Below, one piece after another: positions 1-12,243 of a stretch of 12,243 nucleotides of DNA (position 1 is its first letter; each line of letters starts with the position of its first letter). The position numbers were made by a program, and so were the translations under genes. Source of the DNA: Candidatus Thorarchaeota archaeon. Lineage in GTDB: Archaea > Asgardarchaeota > Thorarchaeia > Thorarchaeales > Thorarchaeaceae. The stretch spans positions 3,790 to 16,032 of the forward strand of contig JBHLRS010000060.1 in assembly GCA_048882325.1 (NCBI GenBank), read 5' to 3'. The notes under the pieces are model-generated. The model saw only the letters and a list, made by a program, of their open reading frames with translations. It was not told the origin of the DNA and searched no databases.

Positions 1-1
1 A

Positions 2-661
2 GGTGAAGAGATACGCGATAAGATTCTCCCGAAAGAAGACCTACCTCCGTTGGGTATACCTGACACTGAGAAGATGAAGGTCACACAAGATATTCTTCAA
101 AAGATGGAGAAAGTTCTAGATCCTTCTGATTGTAAGAGCATCTTGGCTGATGTTGCACACGGATTGCCACGTGACTTTAGGAAAGGAGAACGAGAGAAGT
201 ACTTGAAGGCTGGGAGTGTTGATGCCTATCTTAAACAGAAACGAGAGGACGCAATAGCTGAACTGGAGAAGCACAGGGACGAAGGAACTCTGTTCTACAA
301 CCAATACATCTCTGATGAGGTTGTTGAGTTTGTGAAGAGTCGTCCTGATGTCTTGAGCGGTGAGAGAAGAGGGAATACTATCTATCACACTAAGATTCCA
401 TTTATGGTACAGGAGTATCTTGAAACGAAAGATGAGCGAATGAAACGGTACTATGCCTGTCACTGTGCATGGGCTCGCGAATCAATCCTATCTGATGATG
501 TTGACGTTTCAGTCAACTTCTGTCATTGCAGTGGTGGTTTCACCAAGATGCCATGGGAGGCTGCATTAGATCAGCCTCTGGAGTATGAGATGGTGAAATC
601 AGTACTCAAGGGCGATGATGAATGCAGCTTTGTCATTTACCTTCCTGAAGGTGTTGAATAG
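2..661 (+). CDS. DUF6144-like Cys-rich (V4R-like small-molecule/metal-binding) protein, probably 5'-truncated by the window edge
   Basis: The frame is open from position 2 (GEEIRDKILPKEDLPPL...), upstream of the TTG called at 50. C-terminal motifs YACHCAW, FCHCSGGF and SVLKGDDECSFVI resemble DUF6144/V4R-type proteins (recognised by eye). Confidence 0.7.
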   Translation, partial: GEEIRDKILPKEDLPPLGIPDTEKMKVTQDILQKMEKVLDPSDCKSILADVAHGLPRDFRKGEREKYLKAGSVDAYLKQKREDAIAELEKHRDEGTLFYNQYISDEVVEFVKSRPDVLSGERRGNTIYHTKIPFMVQEYLETKDERMKRYYACHCAWARESILSDDVDVSVNFCHCSGGFTKMPWEAALDQPLEYEMVKSVLKGDDECSFVIYLPEGVE

Positions 662-2383: not shown

Positions 2384-3322
2384 CTAGGCCCAGTAAGGTT
2401 TCCTGATGTATTTGTATGCGTTATGCGCAGCGAGAGCACCCTGAGCTGCAGCAACAGAGGCCAATTGGTATACCGATATAATATCTCCAGCGGCAAAGAC
2501 TCCCTCGATATTGGTCCGCATTTCAGCATCCACAACAATGAACCGTCCATTCATTTTGAGACCCAAGTGGTTGAAAACCTCATTATTCGGAACTAATCCC
2601 ACTGCAATGATGATACGATCAACTTCCAAATCCCATGTCTTTTTTGTCTGATTATTTAGAAGAGTGACTTCTTCAACCTCAGAATTCCCTCTTATTTCTA
2701 GAAGCTCTGTATTATAGAGAATTTCAGCCATCTTTTCATTAACAATTGTATCAACCCTTGTTTCTGCAGCCCTAAATTCATCCTTTCTGTGAGCAATCCA
2801 GATGTCGTGAGTGACATTGTACGCATCAATCACTGCATCAACAGCAGTGTCGCCACCGCCCACTACGAGAACCTTCTTGTCACGGAATATTTCTGGATCG
2901 ACCACATAGGGAAAGACACCACGATTTTTCCTTGAAAATTCTACTTCACCGGGTATTCCAAGTGTATTGGGACGCATTCCAGTCGCGATAATAACAACTT
3001 GAGCCTTATACTCGTCTTCAGGAGTTATGACACCCTTTTCACTGGTTATTTCTGTGACTCGCTCCTTGATCAATCGAACTCCAAGGTCCGCAGCCTGACG
3101 AACCCACTCAGCGACCAGATGAGATGCCATTATTTTCGGGGTGCCTGGATAATTGAATACATGCTTGTATGGATATATCGTTGAGAGAAGGCCTCCCCAT
3201 GTTCCACCTTCAAATACAGCAGTCCTGAGACCTTTGTATGCAGATATTATCCCTGCAGATAGTCCTGCAGGTCCTCCGCCAATGATTGCAACATCAAATT
3301 GGTTACTTTTACTGGCTGTCAT
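2384..3322 (-). CDS. TrxR-fold NAD(P)/FAD-dependent oxidoreductase, probably a ferredoxin--NADP(+) reductase (YumC type)
   Basis: FAD motif IIGGGPAGL, ATG motif, NADPH motif VVGGGDTA, HRKDEFRA and TNIEGVFAAGD. The catalytic CxxC is absent (GVFPYVVD in its place). GGLLSTIYPYKHVFNYPG resembles the YumC GGQLxxLYPEKxIYD motif. Confidence 0.85.
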   Translation of the reverse strand: MTASKSNQFDVAIIGGGPAGLSAGIISAYKGLRTAVFEGGTWGGLLSTIYPYKHVFNYPGTPKIMASHLVAEWVRQAADLGVRLIKERVTEITSEKGVITPEDEYKAQVVIIATGMRPNTLGIPGEVEFSRKNRGVFPYVVDPEIFRDKKVLVVGGGDTAVDAVIDAYNVTHDIWIAHRKDEFRAAETRVDTIVNEKMAEILYNTELLEIRGNSEVEEVTLLNNQTKKTWDLEVDRIIIAVGLVPNNEVFNHLGLKMNGRFIVVDAEMRTNIEGVFAAGDIISVYQLASVAAAQGALAAHNAYKYIRKPYWA

Positions 3323-3350
3323 TCTAACCTCACTACTCCTGTTTTATCAA

Positions 3351-3681: not shown

Positions 3682-4785
3682 CTAATGTTCTTCTAGATCA
3701 TCCAACCAGGTGGAGGTCCTGTCAACAGGTCTGGAAAAGATTGTTCCAACATTTTCAGAATTCTTCGCCTGATGGTATTTGAAGAAGAACTTCTCATCAT
3801 TCATACCAAGAATCTCAACCTTCCCGGTTGGGTGTGACATGATGAACCGAAATCTCTTGGTGTGCCCATCAAGTTTCTTTCTGGTTTCCTGGATTATTCT
3901 ACATCCATCATATAGTGGAACCTGGAAATGTTTCTTGACGCGTTTGACTGGTCTGCATTGAAACACATAGTAGGGAATGATACCAATTCGAACTAGGTTT
4001 CTCTGTAGTTGAGTCATGATGCTTGAATCATCATTTACCCCTCTTAGAAGAACAGTCTGATTACTGATGGTAATTCCTATATCTTGGAGTCTGTTACAAG
4101 CTTTGGTGGACTCTTCAGTAATCTCTCGTGGATGGTTGAACTGTGTGACCACATATAGACGTGTTTTGTTGGTGTAGGACTCGAGCATTTCCACAAATCT
4201 GTGGTCTGATAAGATTCTCTTTGGAAATGTGACTGGTACTCTGGTTCCAAATCTAATGAAATCGAGGTGATCTATCTCTGTTAGTGCGGTCAAAAACTCC
4301 TCTATCCGATCATTAGACAAGACAAATGGGTCTCCTCCAGTAATGAGGACATTGTTGATTTCTCTGTGACCTTGAATATAGTCTTTTACAGGTTGAATAT
4401 CCTGAACGACCTCGTTGTTGTCAACACCAACTAATCGCTTTCTGAAACAATGTCTACAGTACATTGCACACTCATTTGTAGACAATATCACAGCTGTTTG
4501 CTCATATTTGTGTTGAAGACCCGGAAGTACGGTATTATACTTCTCACCACTTGTATCGTAACTACCTTCTAGATAACTCTCATGGGATAGAGGTATTGAT
4601 AGTCTTCTAATAGGGTCCTCTTCATCACTCGCGTCGATCAAAGAGAGATAATATTTGGAAATTCTAAGTGGGTGATCTTGACAGATTTCTTCCAAGATTG
4701 CTTTGTCTTTTTCATTTACAACCAAATATTCTGCTAAATCATCAACTGTCGATATGCTATCTTCCAGAACTGCTTCCCAACTCAT
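3682..4785 (-). CDS. kamA: KamA-family radical SAM protein (lysine/glutamate 2,3-aminomutase-like)
   Basis: Motifs PGLQHKY, CAMYCRHCFRKR (CxxxCxxC), ITGGDP, RFGTRVP, NQTVLLRGVND, PYYVFQC, and a candidate PLP lysine in HPTGK. The substrate cannot be assigned. Confidence 0.9.
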   Translation of the reverse strand: MSWEAVLEDSISTVDDLAEYLVVNEKDKAILEEICQDHPLRISKYYLSLIDASDEEDPIRRLSIPLSHESYLEGSYDTSGEKYNTVLPGLQHKYEQTAVILSTNECAMYCRHCFRKRLVGVDNNEVVQDIQPVKDYIQGHREINNVLITGGDPFVLSNDRIEEFLTALTEIDHLDFIRFGTRVPVTFPKRILSDHRFVEMLESYTNKTRLYVVTQFNHPREITEESTKACNRLQDIGITISNQTVLLRGVNDDSSIMTQLQRNLVRIGIIPYYVFQCRPVKRVKKHFQVPLYDGCRIIQETRKKLDGHTKRFRFIMSHPTGKVEILGMNDEKFFFKYHQAKNSENVGTIFSRPVDRTSTWLDDLEEH

Positions 4786-6351: not shown

Positions 6352-6489
6352 ATGAGTACACGTTCTTACGATTACTGTATGTGTGGTCATATTCGCAAGT
6401 GCCATGATAATTTTGATGGCAAATGTGAGAGATGTGGATGTGATGTGTTTTACAGGAGCATGCGTGTGAAGAATCGACTTGGTAAGTGA
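6352..6489 (+). CDS. 45-aa Cys/His-rich putative zinc-binding microprotein (copy 1)
   Basis: MSTRSYDYCMCGHIRKCHDNFDGKCERCGCDVFYRSMRVKNRLGK*, with a GAGGCG SD-like motif. It is 32/45 identical to copy 2. Confidence 0.85.
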   Translation: MSTRSYDYCMCGHIRKCHDNFDGKCERCGCDVFYRSMRVKNRLGK

Positions 6490-7856: not shown

Positions 7857-7994
7857 ATGAGTACACGTTCTTATGACCACTGTTCGTGTGGCCACATTCG
7901 TGAACGCCATGACAATTTCGATGGCGAATGCGAAAAATGTAGTTGTGATGTGTTTCGCAGAAGCATACGAATAAAGAATTATCTACCAGATTGA
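7857..7994 (+). CDS. 45-aa Cys/His-rich putative zinc-binding microprotein (copy 2)
   Basis: MSTRSYDHCSCGHIRERHDNFDGECEKCSCDVFRRSIRIKNYLPD*, with SD GAGGTGAAAAT-ATG. It is a paralog of 6352-6489. Confidence 0.85.
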   Translation: MSTRSYDHCSCGHIRERHDNFDGECEKCSCDVFRRSIRIKNYLPD

Positions 7995-9344: not shown

Positions 9345-9482
9345 TGGTCGGGACGGCCGGATTTGAACCGGCAACCGATGGATCTCTCCAGACAACGACC
9401 GAAGCGGTTGCCCACTACAGTCCATTGCTCTGCCAGATTTCCCAGAGATCGTCGAAACGACACTCTTTTGAGCTACGTCCCG
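9345..9482 (-). tRNA. tRNA-Tyr(GUA) with two introns (about 9438-9467 in the D-loop; 9384-9414 at 37/38) and encoded CCA
   Basis: Spliced form CGGGACG TA GCTC AATCTGGCA GAGC A ATGGA CTGTAGA TCCAT CGGTT GCCGG TTCAAAT CCGGC CGTCCCG A CCA is 77 nt with all stems paired. C1:G72 and A73 are Tyr identity elements. The anticodon is at 9418-9416. Confidence 0.95.
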
Positions 9483-9509
9483 ATTCCGGCTTGGTGTCTT
9501 TAGCATCTC

Positions 9510-9517
9510 GTTAAAAG
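9510..9517 (-). promoter_or_regulatory. Putative TATA box of tRNA-Tyr
   Basis: Minus-strand CTTTTAAC about 30 nt upstream of the mature 5' end. Confidence 0.45.
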
Positions 9518-9577
9518 GATTGCTGATTGGTAATATTGTGTTTTAGATAATTCAAACAGTTTACATGAAATCGATTC

Positions 9578-10402
9578 TCAACTACCTCCTAGGTCAACAC
9601 GGACAGCTTGTTTTGATGGTTTCATTCTTTTCCCATCCAATACCAAGTCACACAATCTGGAGTTGTAGTGAACATGAAAGTTTAGTAGATGAAACCGAAT
9701 GAGCTGTTTTAATTCGATTGAAGATAGCGGATATATTCTTTTCACGATGAATTCAGTACAAAATCGCATCAATTGCAAACGAAACAGGTTGAATGTTTCA
9801 TTTACTTTTTCCGCTACCTTAATTCTCACAGCTTCATTCTTTTCGATTTTGACTTGATTTTGTACAAAGATACCATCCTCAACAATACGACTCGCTATTT
9901 CCGCTATCAAGAATAAATCGTTTACAAATTCGATTTCAAACAAATCCCAAAATCTGTCAACCAATTGACCAAGTAACCTTATTGCAGACTGAGTAGTAAT
10001 AGCTATATGTAGAAGATATCTATCTAGAGGATAGTTAGTAGAGGGTGTCACAATCCCCTTAGCTCGGAGTTGTAAATCCTCTTCCTCTGTTAATGGCGTT
10101 TCTGTTTCATTGTTTCGAGCTAGTGAAATGTACAAATCACGATTTAATACAGTGAATAATCTTCGGAGAGCGATCTGTTGTCTTGGTTCTAAGCGTTTGT
10201 TCCTATTCAGATTAATAAGCCAATCAAGAAATAGACTGATTCCAAATACCTCAAGAAAGATGCTCATTAGTATAATCATCCAATCAATAACAAACTGATA
10301 ACCTGGTGTGACCAATCCCTTAATCCAAATCAGCGTAAGGATTGTGATGCTGCAAAACAGAACAGTAGAAACAATTGCAATAGCTCGTGTTGTTCGTTTC
10401 AT
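9578..10402 (-). CDS. Hypothetical protein with two N-terminal TM helices and a helical soluble domain
   Basis: 274-aa ORF with SD GGAGA upstream and two hydrophobic segments within residues 8-62. No family recognised. Confidence 0.75.
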   Translation of the reverse strand: MKRTTRAIAIVSTVLFCSITILTLIWIKGLVTPGYQFVIDWMIILMSIFLEVFGISLFLDWLINLNRNKRLEPRQQIALRRLFTVLNRDLYISLARNNETETPLTEEEDLQLRAKGIVTPSTNYPLDRYLLHIAITTQSAIRLLGQLVDRFWDLFEIEFVNDLFLIAEIASRIVEDGIFVQNQVKIEKNEAVRIKVAEKVNETFNLFRLQLMRFCTEFIVKRIYPLSSIELKQLIRFHLLNFHVHYNSRLCDLVLDGKRMKPSKQAVRVDLGGS

Positions 10403-10433
10403 TATTTATTCTCCAACAAGTCGTAATTACATT

Positions 10434-10787
10434 TTATGTTGAAAACATTCCACCTATGAAGCCAATGAATTCAGCTCCAAATGTTGCATAGAATAACTGT
10501 TCCATTGCTATCATTGGGAGTGAAAAAATCGTAATTACTGGGATTCCGATACCAAGAATAGGCAGTAGGTATCTTAAGCAAAACGCTTCATCTCTTGAAA
10601 CAAATTGACCACTCCATCCATAATGATATCGCCCAGTTGAATCCTTCACATAGACAACCCCTAAGAAGATACCAAGGAATCCATTAATCGTGATAGAACT
10701 GCCTAAAGGCGGGTAGATTGATGCCATCCAGAATAGAATACATATGGAGGCGACAAGTTTGATCGATTTGATCAACATCTTAAGCAT
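10434..10787 (-). CDS. Hypothetical membrane protein (about 4 TM helices)
   Basis: 117-aa hydrophobic ORF with a strong SD, GAGGTGATGTAGA-ATG. Confidence 0.7.
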   Translation of the reverse strand: MLKMLIKSIKLVASICILFWMASIYPPLGSSITINGFLGIFLGVVYVKDSTGRYHYGWSGQFVSRDEAFCLRYLLPILGIGIPVITIFSLPMIAMEQLFYATFGAEFIGFIGGMFST

Positions 10788-10798
10788 TCTACATCACC

Positions 10799-11443
10799 TC
10801 AGATGATATCCAGGGATCCTAGAAACTCGTTACTTTCGTCAACAATGGTCTGAATTCCCTCACGGACCAATTCAAAGAGATTCCTCAACCAGTCTTCAAT
10901 GAAGTCACCAGAAATCACTAATTTCCATCCTAGTATTAAGTCAATGTTGGTGACTCCAAGATTGTTCAGAGCTGTCTTCAGACCGGTAGGTAGTAAGTTT
11001 ACGTCGGAAGAAACAACAACATCGGTAACTATGCCATCGATTCCGAAGAAAGTAAGGTATATTGGTAGACTTCCTCCTATCATAATTGTAAATGAAACGG
11101 ACCAGTGACCGTCTTCTTCGATAGTTAACCAAGAACTTGATTGAGTTGCACTATTCAGGTATTCTTTGATAGTGGATTCAATGCTGTTGGATGTAATCGC
11201 GTTGACTGTAACTGTATTGTCATGCCAGTCTATTTCTTCAGTGGTATGGTCTTGAGAGATGGCTTTAGATAACCAACGATATTTGAGAGTTGTACTTCCA
11301 ACAGTGGTACCGTCATATTCTGCTTTAAGAGTAAGTTCCAGATCAACAGGCGCTCCACTCTCATTCAGTGTGTTGATAGTCACTATTCCAAGAATACAGA
11401 TTGTAAGTATCAATACGATGATAGCGGCGGGGGACCTTCCCAT
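10799..11443 (-). CDS. Hypothetical membrane-anchored/secreted protein
   Basis: 214 aa with an N-terminal hydrophobic helix followed by a Thr/Ser-rich, beta-like region. SD GGGAGTG upstream. Confidence 0.75.
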   Translation of the reverse strand: MGRSPAAIIVLILTICILGIVTINTLNESGAPVDLELTLKAEYDGTTVGSTTLKYRWLSKAISQDHTTEEIDWHDNTVTVNAITSNSIESTIKEYLNSATQSSSWLTIEEDGHWSVSFTIMIGGSLPIYLTFFGIDGIVTDVVVSSDVNLLPTGLKTALNNLGVTNIDLILGWKLVISGDFIEDWLRNLFELVREGIQTIVDESNEFLGSLDII

Positions 11444-11568
11444 TATTTTTCACTCCCTTAATGCTGCTCTATTATATCAAGAACTACATCACAAGGCACC
11501 AAGTCTGGACCTATTCTGCAGATAGCACACAGGCAATATGTGCTATATCAGACATATATACACTTTAC

Positions 11569-11577
11569 TTATATATA
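11569..11577 (+). promoter_or_regulatory. Putative TATA box of the AbrB-type gene (leaderless)
   Basis: TTATATATA about 23-31 nt upstream of ATG 11600. Confidence 0.4.
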
Positions 11578-11599
11578 GCTTCTTCCTTGAAGATTGGAT

Positions 11600-11821
11600 A
11601 TGCCGGATGATGTGATTGAAATCAGAAACATTACGAAAAGAGGAGGAAGTTTAGCTTTGAACATACCTTCTGTGGTAGCTAAACAGATGAACCTGACTGC
11701 AGGCTGTTCTGTTGTTTTTCAATATGAAATAGAAAATAATCGTATTGTAATTGAAAAGGTCGAGTCCATAAATACCGAGAAAGGCCGGAAAATCGAACTT
11801 CCCAATTCTGGTTGTGACTAG
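11600..11821 (+). CDS. AbrB/MazE/SpoVT-family DNA-binding protein
   Basis: RNITKRGGSLALNIPSVVAKQMNLTAGCSVVF...RIVIEKV fits the swapped-hairpin pattern. Start is ATG 11600 (alternatively TTG 11594). Confidence 0.85.
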   Translation: MPDDVIEIRNITKRGGSLALNIPSVVAKQMNLTAGCSVVFQYEIENNRIVIEKVESINTEKGRKIELPNSGCD

Positions 11822-11828
11822 ATTCATC

Positions 11829-11844
11829 GAGTGATAAATCACTC
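11829..11844. repeat. Palindrome/hairpin GAGTGAT-AA-ATCACTC between convergent ORFs
   Basis: Perfect 7-bp arms with a 2-nt spacer, immediately next to the tRNA-Tyr fragment. Confidence 0.55.
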
Positions 11845-11989
11845 AAGAGCAATGGACTGTAGTTGACCTGTTTCTCCCAAGTGAGTGAACATCAACAAGA
11901 AACTTCTGTGTTTCACCACTCCTCAACCGAATGTCACCATTAAACTCTAGCGTCACCCAGAGATAAGTTGAGGCATTGTCTGCAATCAT
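11843..11989 (-). CDS. Possible 48-aa hypothetical protein whose last codons are the antisense of the tRNA-Tyr fragment
   Basis: MIADNASTYLWVTLEFNGDIRLRSGETQKFLVDVHSLGRNRSTTVHCS*, with GGAGG upstream. Its start overlaps an upstream stop (ATGA). Confidence 0.4.
   Translation of the reverse strand: MIADNASTYLWVTLEFNGDIRLRSGETQKFLVDVHSLGRNRSTTVHCS
11846..11863 (+). repeat. Exact 18-bp inverted copy of the tRNA-Tyr D-stem/anticodon segment
   Basis: agagcaatggactgtagt is the exact reverse complement of 9414-9431 (actacagtccattgctct). Confidence 0.85.
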
Positions 11990-12169
11990 CGAGATACAAC
12001 TCCTCCTGCAGACCTGGCTTCTTCATCCTGTTTCACGACTGACACATCACTGTCAGCAACAGAGATTGTTTCCACAGTTTTTTCCACAGCGCGGTCATCT
12101 TCACCCTTCTCAGATTCATCGCTGAAGTTGAGAAGATCTATCTGGACATGGTGAGAAGCTGCGGACTCT

Positions 12170-12241
12170 CTAGACTACGCGCCCAATGAGTACACTCGTT
12201 TCCATTTTCCTCTTAAGCACTTCTGTATTGAACATTGAATC
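12170..12241 (-). CDS. Possible 3' end of a gene entering from beyond the window
   Basis: The frame is open from the window edge (...DSMFNTEVLKRKMETSVLIGRVV*). It is too short to assign. Confidence 0.25.
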   Translation of the reverse strand, partial: DSMFNTEVLKRKMETSVLIGRVV

Positions 12242-12243
12242 AT

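Follow-up and report, generated by a model that had tools for sequence, protein, structure and literature searches.

The window analyzed here is a 12,243-nt stretch of DNA from a Candidatus Thorarchaeota archaeon, corresponding to positions 3790–16032 of contig C60 in the metagenome-assembled genome (MAG) G000, which is 93% complete; its right edge is the contig end. Relatives of this genome are numbered G001 onward, and individual loci carry L-numbers. The window contains the sole tRNA-Tyr(GTA) gene found in a search of the G000 assembly (positions 9482 to 9348) and, ending 380 bp from the contig end, a second copy of an 18-mer from this gene that directly adjoins the right end of a decayed TnpB element. 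The tRNA-Tyr gene was seen only with Rfam, as ARAGORN reported no tRNA in the window. The 18-mer, AGAGCAATGGACTGTAGT, occurs at exactly two sites in the window, 9414–9431 on the minus strand and 11846–11863 on the plus strand, and none of 200 dinucleotide shuffles of the window reached two matches. A search of the whole assembly (3.6 Mb, 89 contigs) gave no third copy. An earlier reading of the window from its letters alone (the sequence-only reading) had reported an exact 18-bp copy in opposite orientation that was unlikely to have arisen by chance, and these searches bear it out.

The same reading took the 18-mer for a copy of the middle exon of the tRNA that ends with the first base of the intron. 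Comparison with 25 congeneric tRNA-Tyr genes showed that the D-loop bases AATCTGGCA are exonic, and the intron-less orthologues read GCTCAATCTGGCAGAGC; the copy therefore corresponds to tRNA positions ∼21–37, which is less than the whole middle exon. Seventeen of its nucleotides are exon sequence (Table 1). Since a variable base follows the AGGTCA motif in all members of the element family described below, the match of the eighteenth base (11863) to the first intron base is probably due to chance. This base is most likely the last base of the element and not derived from the tRNA, and in an empty-site comparison one family element ends in ...GGGTCAG.

The element end beside the tRNA-Tyr copy

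When positions 11450–12243 of the window were used to search the DNA of 41 relatives, matches were confined to the part from ∼11857–11881 to 12174. Of the 24 congeners searched, 17 contained this part, at up to 13 places in a single genome and with identities of 67–82%. Read in minus-strand orientation, the family copies can be aligned as far as ...GTTGAKGTTCACTCA-loop-...AGGT(C/T)A, beyond which they lose similarity, and all of them have the right end ...GTTCACTCA...AGGTCA. The frame 12174–11989 is 58% identical to residues 499–557 of a 558-aa TnpB (tblastn), including an acidic tail, and these ∼60 last codons are all that is left of tnpB in the window. On the strength of these alignments, we assign 11864–12174 (minus strand) to the omega-RNA and right-end region of a decayed TnpB element. 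Canonical TnpB elements take a ∼16-nt guide from the flanking DNA beyond their right end (reviewed in PMC13565253); the tRNA-Tyr piece begins one base past AGGTCA, which is the position of the TnpB guide (hereafter the slot).

The 125 nt between the tnpB stop codon and AGGTCA form the stretch that contains a 48-aa open reading frame (ORF; 11843–11989, minus strand), previously put forward as a gene fragment. The ORF exists, but it overlies a structured RNA: in an RNAalifold prediction from 34 copies, 13 of the 20 predicted pairs show compensatory changes, and the window scaffold stays paired with compensated pairs of its own (CCTCAAC/GTTGAGG and others). No Rfam family matches the repeat or the scaffold. 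The sequence-only reading had also considered an att site of an element extending to the right, with the ORF as a gene cut at att in the manner of SSV-type integrases. An element does lie to the right, of TnpB/omega-RNA type; the integrase and the cut gene fall away, as the ORF is omega-RNA scaffold. Accordingly, an SSV-type int(N) fragment was rejected as an identity for this ORF, whose frame across the tRNA copy is coincidental and which lies over covarying RNA.

Full-length copies of the family carry an ORF of 549–560 aa that matches PF07282 (5e-13), NF040570 'guided_TnpB' (1e-23) and the TnpB structure in PDB entry 9nzp (7e-11). In 15 TnpB copies, the RuvC-I Asp (D240), the RuvC-III motif NADxN (D435) and a zinc finger (CxxC..CxxC) are invariant, whereas the canonical RuvC-II Glu is replaced by Gly in all 15. 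An invariant Glu401 is located in the strand just before the zinc finger and is predicted to be a possible replacement for the RuvC-II Glu, as in the 'RIIr' clades; a Glu relocation of this kind was described for the 'RuvC-II rearranged' clades by Altae-Tran et al. 2023 (PMC10691335). The proteins are 54–89% identical between copies, pointing to old copies.

By protein and RNA criteria, the element belongs to the TnpB-omega-RNA (OMEGA) systems. In common with the IS200/IS605 OMEGA systems, for which ISDra2 is the paradigm (Karvelis 2021; Altae-Tran 2021; reviewed in PMC13565253), the family combines a zinc finger with RuvC motifs and has a structured RNA that overlaps the tnpB 3′ end and reaches the right end, a ∼16-nt guide position outside that end (the likeness concerns the position only) and many tnpB-only and truncated copies. 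Unlike these systems, it has Gly in place of the RuvC-II Glu, one insertion with an 8-bp duplication, no defined target-adjacent motif (TAM) and, in the assembly of the window genome, no Y1 TnpA (PF01797); moreover, its slot often holds a segment of a nearby tRNA and not anonymous flank. The Asgard TnpB groups Cas1H-Asgard-1 and -2 (Altae-Tran et al. 2023, PMC10691335) come from the same host phylum and share the RuvC-III NADxN motif as well as the same GTTCACTCA motif, which in both borders a variable segment at the 3′ end of the omega-RNA; membership of the family in these groups is a candidate assignment. In contrast to them, no Cas1-like gene lies beside the copies examined, including the one with a 1513-aa neighbour ORF (see below). 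The 2023 study makes no mention of tRNA-derived content in the variable segment of Asgard TnpB loci.

In G000 the stub is dead. The tnpB tail is truncated, with an in-frame stop codon just upstream, and is fused via a common TCTAG to a tRNA-Arg(TCG) fragment that is present as a single copy in the G000 assembly; a five-base join of this kind is typical for deletion at a microhomology. No further copy of the TnpB family and no PF07282 domain is present in the assembly, and thus no partner for the stub. It also lacks an intact tRNA-Arg(TCG). As neither this gene nor tRNA-Asp is present, tRNA genes are under-assembled in this MAG, and, given a completeness of 93% and the frequent loss of repeats, the absence of TnpB is provisional.

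Table 1. Positions of the features around the two copies of the tRNA-Tyr segment in the window
Feature	Position	Strand	Remarks
tRNA-Tyr(GTA)	9348..9482	-	Two introns (D-loop, 37/38); Rfam RF00005, 48.6 bits; contains 9414-9431
Inter-copy block	9535..11828		Minus strand: three ORFs for membrane proteins, no Pfam hits; plus strand: AbrB/MazE-type gene, 11594-11821
Palindrome GAGTGAT-AA-ATCACTC	11829..11844		Between the AbrB stop codon and the tRNA piece
tRNA-Tyr-derived 17-nt piece	11846..11862	-	Reads CTACAGTCCATTGCTCT, the reverse complement of tRNA 37..21; exact match to 9415-9431; guide slot directly after the right end
Base following AGGTCA	11863	-	A; G/T/A across the family; from flank lists
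Omega-RNA scaffold, 3′ non-coding part, and right end	11864..11985	-	Stem CCTCAAC/GTTGAGG, inner hairpin, GTTGATGTTCACTCA, terminal hairpin; AGGTCA at 11869-11864; from an alignment of 34 copies
tnpB C-terminal tail remnant	11986..12174	-	SRESAASHHVQIDLLNFSDE...GGVVSR and stop codon; equals aa 499-557; in-frame stop upstream
tRNA-Arg(TCG), first 15 nt	12170..12184	-	GGGCGCGTAGTCTAG; fused to the tnpB tail via common TCTAG; compared with the intact gene beside the G011 element
tRNA-Arg(TCG) upstream (promoter) region	12185..12243	-	25/27 bases identical to the G011:C285 counterpart; contig end

The position of the copy so close to a contig end in a MAG raises the possibility that the junction is an assembly artefact, that is, a chimeric join at a common k-mer. 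The overlap is only 18 bp, and the k-mers used by assemblers are usually longer. Moreover, the junction between right end and tRNA piece recurs in the independent assembly of another species, G001, and the contig end itself would be explained by a second copy of the tRNA-Arg promoter region in the real genome. We therefore hold an artefact to be very improbable.

An attL or attR remnant of a tyrosine-integrase element or virus that uses tRNA-Tyr was also considered. Integrase-style, 5′-truncated tRNA-Tyr copies (∼8–76) in G022 and G011 show that such elements use this gene in the genus. At our locus, however, the repeat is inverted, measures only 17–18 nt and derives from an internal part of the tRNA, the window encodes no integrase, and in two genomes the piece is found against a TnpB right end, all of which makes an att remnant unlikely in the extreme, if a shade less so than an artefact. 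Two further identities were rejected. For a C/D-box guide on the minus strand, assessed by eye, the spacing of the boxes is wrong and a length of 18 nt is excessive; for a piece of a split or tri-split tRNA with bulge-helix-bulge leaders, an intact tRNA-Tyr is present, the piece is less than an exon and its flank is a transposon end.

The block between the two copies encodes membrane-protein ORFs of 274, 117 and 214 aa and a solitary AbrB/MazE-type gene. Its GC content is 36–40%, compared with 44% for the genome, and the only counterpart of its DNA among 27 congeners is one 66%-identical piece in one of them. Homology to G001 and G013 upstream of tRNA-Tyr ends ∼50 nt from the tRNA. These data indicate that the 2.3-kb block was inserted, specifically in this genome, between the promoter of the tRNA and the stub of the TnpB element. 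Since the stub or element is located 24–75 nt from the tRNA in relatives, both the 2.4-kb spacing and the appearance of an inverted repeat around a cassette look secondary.

This bears on the proposal of the sequence-only reading that the copies are recombination sites that make 9432–11845 invertible. An exact 18-bp inverted repeat around a 2.4-kb block is in its favour, but the window encodes no invertase or other recombinase, nor the integrase or reverse transcriptase that had been envisaged nearby. Inversion would split exon 1 from the rest of the sole tRNA-Tyr and so destroy it, there is no 3′ tRNA half to the right of 11863, and the G001 piece is a direct repeat located 24 nt behind the tRNA. 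Of all explanations considered, a switch of this kind has the least to recommend it, and we give it almost no weight.

The palindrome that had been noted one base from the copy is where it was said to be. The two arms are similar to the TCACTCA core of the right-end motif; the predicted fold does not outperform shuffles (z = −0.2), and the palindrome is not present in G001. Elsewhere in the window, two paired 45-aa Cys/His ORFs (6352–6489 and 7857–7994) are conserved near the tRNA-Tyr loci of relatives, e.g. L060 and L062 (tblastx).

Slots of related elements

The arrangement seen in the window is found in other genomes. G001 has an intact tRNA-Tyr and, 24 nt behind it, ACAGCAATGGACTGTAG in direct orientation; the right end comes next, as its reverse complement. 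This slot holds the same tRNA-Tyr 21–37 piece (16/17 bases identical) in a different species. Between G000 and G001, 16/18 bases of the piece are kept compared with 76% of the scaffold, a difference that is not significant. Other slots hold another part of the same tRNA: in G012, G014 and G023 the sequence is AGGTCA-A-GAGCTACGTCCCG, and in G011, G024, G007 and G015 it is AGGTCA-GT-GAGCTACGTTCCG, both being the reverse complement of tRNA-Tyr 1–13, with the tRNA-Tyr gene ∼75 nt beyond the slot. Full-length TnpB (549 aa in this setting) is encoded beside tRNA-Tyr in G012 and G023. The tRNA-Tyr-flanked copies all fall into one clade with 100/98 support. In G013, G003 and G016 the slot is TACACTACAGGGGCT, the reverse complement of tRNA-Asp −1..14, and in G013 and G003 the tRNA-Asp gene is located 7.3 kb from the slot in inverted orientation.

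We collected ∼60 distinct right ends. Among 50 flanks listed, at least 17 are tRNA-derived, in either orientation, with lengths mostly of 13–20 nt and longer examples of 28 (tRNA-Asp 27..−1), 41 (tRNA-Arg 41..1) and 44 nt. The pieces of 13–20 nt come from tRNA-Tyr, -Asp, -Arg and -Gly, the cognate gene lying in cis at a distance between 24 nt and 7.6 kb. There are also flanks that represent the 3′ part of a tRNA in sense orientation. A partner for the slot 17-mer (≤3 mismatches) was present in the same locus for 12/62 slots compared with 16/186 control windows. Where the slot is tRNA-Tyr-derived (nine genomes), the gene invariably has an intron at the matching junction; of the 15 other genomes, nine have an intron-less gene. 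Because the genomes are related, this association is no valid test.

The type of flank follows the type of terminal hairpin, and flanks are therefore inherited or recombined, not rewritten. Replacement of a guide without transposition had been suggested by L004, which groups with class 2 and carries a class-1 flank. It was ruled out, since the terminal hairpin of L004 is also of class-1 type and this locus is thus a recombinant.

Some loci show further arrangements. At L014 and L038 (G003 and G016), two right-end units stand in tandem, ∼100 nt apart, in an array-like manner, each preceding a different tRNA-Asp piece (14..−1 and a decayed 27..). Compared with positions 3290–3334 of G000 contig C46, the inserted DNA at L036 (G011:C392) extends 16 nt past AGGTCA, and these 16 nt resemble sequence ∼75 nt to the left of the insert, a hint that the slot travels with the element. 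At L025 (G022:C2, compared with G000 C9:60438–60500), the slot repeats, in inverted orientation, sequence from upstream of the adjacent tRNA-Gly.

We attempted to place the element boundaries by aligning 14 upstream regions and by examining within-genome pairs, short copies resembling miniature inverted-repeat transposable elements and empty sites in G000. The left end could not be placed to the base by these comparisons, and the boundaries are fuzzy. Junctions were inconsistent between empty sites, with an 8-bp duplication, a 3–4-bp duplication or none. The first of these was seen at L092 (G014:C8): relative to G000 C25:32755, there is a 1360-bp insert flanked by the direct duplication ATAACAAT, and it comprises a piece of another gene along with the 3′ portion of tnpB and the right end. 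An 8-bp duplication is not expected for IS200/IS605 transposition. The sequences 5′ of the putative protospacers (AGATT, TGGAT, CGTAC, TTGAA and CCAAC) share no common motif, and accordingly no TAM was defined. At L098 (13–4551, plus strand; G013:C11), a full-length tnpB and a 1513-aa ORF are arranged divergently, and the ORF stops at a distance of 20 nt from the tRNA-Asp 3′ end. This ORF gave no Pfam or NCBIfam hit, even at loose thresholds, and may be part of a ∼7-kb element.

The tRNA-Tyr gene itself varies in the genus (window 9348–9482, L051–L079). It has 0, 1, 2 or 3 introns depending on the species; the D-loop accounts for two unrelated introns, and the others are located at 37/38 and in the T-loop. 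Most species have the acceptor stem CGGGACG, and three have CGGAGCG or CGGAGTG, with compensated changes. The 5′-truncated pseudo-tRNA-Tyr copies are located at L073 (G022:C20) and L078 (G011:C263) and have the look of att duplicates of integrase-type elements; one of them is linked to the TFIIB gene, which normally stands tail-to-tail with tRNA-Tyr.

Origin of the tRNA-derived piece

We lean towards the view that the 18-mer is a leftover from the insertion of a TnpB element into or beside a copy of tRNA-Tyr. The ancestor would have been a Thorarchaeota TnpB lineage residing beside tRNA-Tyr, and it would have inserted, in antisense orientation, at the anticodon-loop position 37/38 of a tRNA-Tyr gene copy. 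With insertion at this point and in this orientation, the 5′ part of the tRNA copy would have become the right-end flank. Later rearrangements would have removed everything beyond tRNA position 21 and placed the genome-specific 2.3-kb block between the relic and the working tRNA-Tyr, and the TCTAG microhomology deletion against tRNA-Arg(TCG) would have reduced the element to the tnpB tail and scaffold. A relic of a second tRNA-Tyr, one of the suggestions of the sequence-only reading, is compatible with this course of events and plausible, as what is left of a target site. On balance, we consider the inverted repeat a fossil target site or fossil guide, and not a recombination site, an att site or a regulator.

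In support of a leftover, which we think somewhat better than an even bet, the flanks that are antisense to a tRNA in classes 1 and 3, and likewise at L104 and L110, extend exactly to the tRNA 5′ end. This is expected if the flank is a dead copy compared with a working paralogue that has a different upstream sequence. Insertion into tRNA genes, at their loops, would then be a habit of this TnpB family. Further support comes from the single clade of tRNA-Tyr-flanked copies, from the inheritance of flank type together with hairpin type, from the G000–G001 comparison, in which the piece is kept no better than the scaffold, and from the dead state of the stub.

Several observations weigh against a leftover. 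The piece ends at tRNA position 21, short of the 5′ end, which calls for an additional deletion, common to G001. None of the left ends yielded the rest of a disrupted tRNA, and many pieces in the family measure 13–20 nt, the length of a guide. The class-1 13-mer is identical at 12/13 positions across lineages with a scaffold divergence of ∼0.7 substitutions per site, whereas the next 13 nt show no relationship, suggesting either selection or repeated site-specific insertion. The slots of L025 and L036 copy nearby non-tRNA DNA, which plain insertion does not predict. Finally, a TnpB partner may sit in the unassembled part of G000.

Alternatively, the piece could be a working or once-working guide that was copied from a segment of the nearby tRNA gene. 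We regard this as a tentative explanation, less probable than not by a good distance. A minus-strand RNA complementary to the tRNA had been proposed from the sequence of the window; the anatomy, with a predicted omega-RNA guide slot, fits this proposal, but no TnpB is encoded in the assembly. A complex of TnpB and omega-RNA with such a guide would home to, or hold, the element beside the tRNA gene, or it would cut intron-less or rival tRNA alleles. The tRNA-Tyr of the host would be shielded by its 37/38 intron, which separates the would-be TAM side from the protospacer. Extended to the family, slots would be filled from the neighbouring tRNA gene or its surroundings, with D-loop, 37/38 and T-loop introns acting as shields, an idea to which we give the same modest odds as to the guide itself. 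The window would then be a decayed example, and its 2.3-kb block might be former cargo.

Consistent with a guide, the pieces have guide length, come from four tRNAs in either orientation and have their cognate gene in cis, and slot 17-mers find partners in their own locus more often than controls do. The class-1 13-mer is kept while its neighbouring bases are not, non-tRNA DNA is also copied (L025 and L036), and the window scaffold still keeps its compensated stems. Intact TnpB adjoins tRNA-Tyr in G012 and G023, and in G012, G014 and G023 the adjacent tRNA has 2–3 compensated changes inside the matched 13-mer. The intron at the matching junction in all tRNA-Tyr-slot genomes would also fit, as would the hypervariable, possibly spacer-like region next to the GTTCACTCA motif at Asgard TnpB loci (Altae-Tran et al. 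2023, PMC10691335). On the other hand, the putative protospacers lack a common 5′ motif, and some flanks reach 28–44 nt into the tRNA, as plain insertion would. In G013, which has an intact TnpB, the slot matches its own tRNA-Asp at 15/15 positions, and this would be suicidal for an active nuclease if a TAM is present. The relatedness of the genomes undercuts the intron association, no TnpB is assembled in G000, and the RuvC-II Glu is Gly in all copies, although Glu401 may replace it. Whether the piece is read as a guide or as a leftover, the window contains a truncated, apparently partnerless stub whose slot holds 17 nt of tRNA-Tyr.

A search of the literature gave no report of tRNA-derived TnpB guides. 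The nearest functional analogy would be the tRNA-matching CRISPR RNA (crRNA) of type V-K CRISPR-associated transposons (CASTs): in 2021, Saito and co-workers reportedly described homing of these elements through a short (∼17-nt), delocalized crRNA that matches a tRNA gene. By this account, which we use as an analogy only, CASTs resemble our elements in having a ∼17-nt copy of a tRNA gene next to a Cas12/TnpB-type gene and in residing tens to hundreds of bases from the intact tRNA. Unlike CASTs, the elements described here lack a Tn7-like transposase and a CRISPR repeat, and neither their distance nor their orientation is fixed. A second comparison is with TldRs, nuclease-dead TnpB-like repressors (Wiegand et al. 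2024, PMC10705468), which are likewise TnpB relatives with a guide that matches a host locus and not their own insertion site. TldRs are immobile and present in single copy, and they are truncated or have lost RuvC residues, whereas the present family is multi-copy and keeps RuvC-I and RuvC-III.

With respect to the window itself, the odd inverted repeat is the edge of a dead transposon, an ordinary fossil, and not a switch that makes or breaks an essential tRNA. The single locus is of modest interest, which lies instead in the recurrence of the pattern across the family. If the pieces are leftovers only, they show a strong preference of these elements for tRNA genes. If they are working guides, they would represent a natural RNA-guided nuclease aimed at essential host genes, and they would offer a testable reason for the patchy distribution of tRNA introns in archaea.

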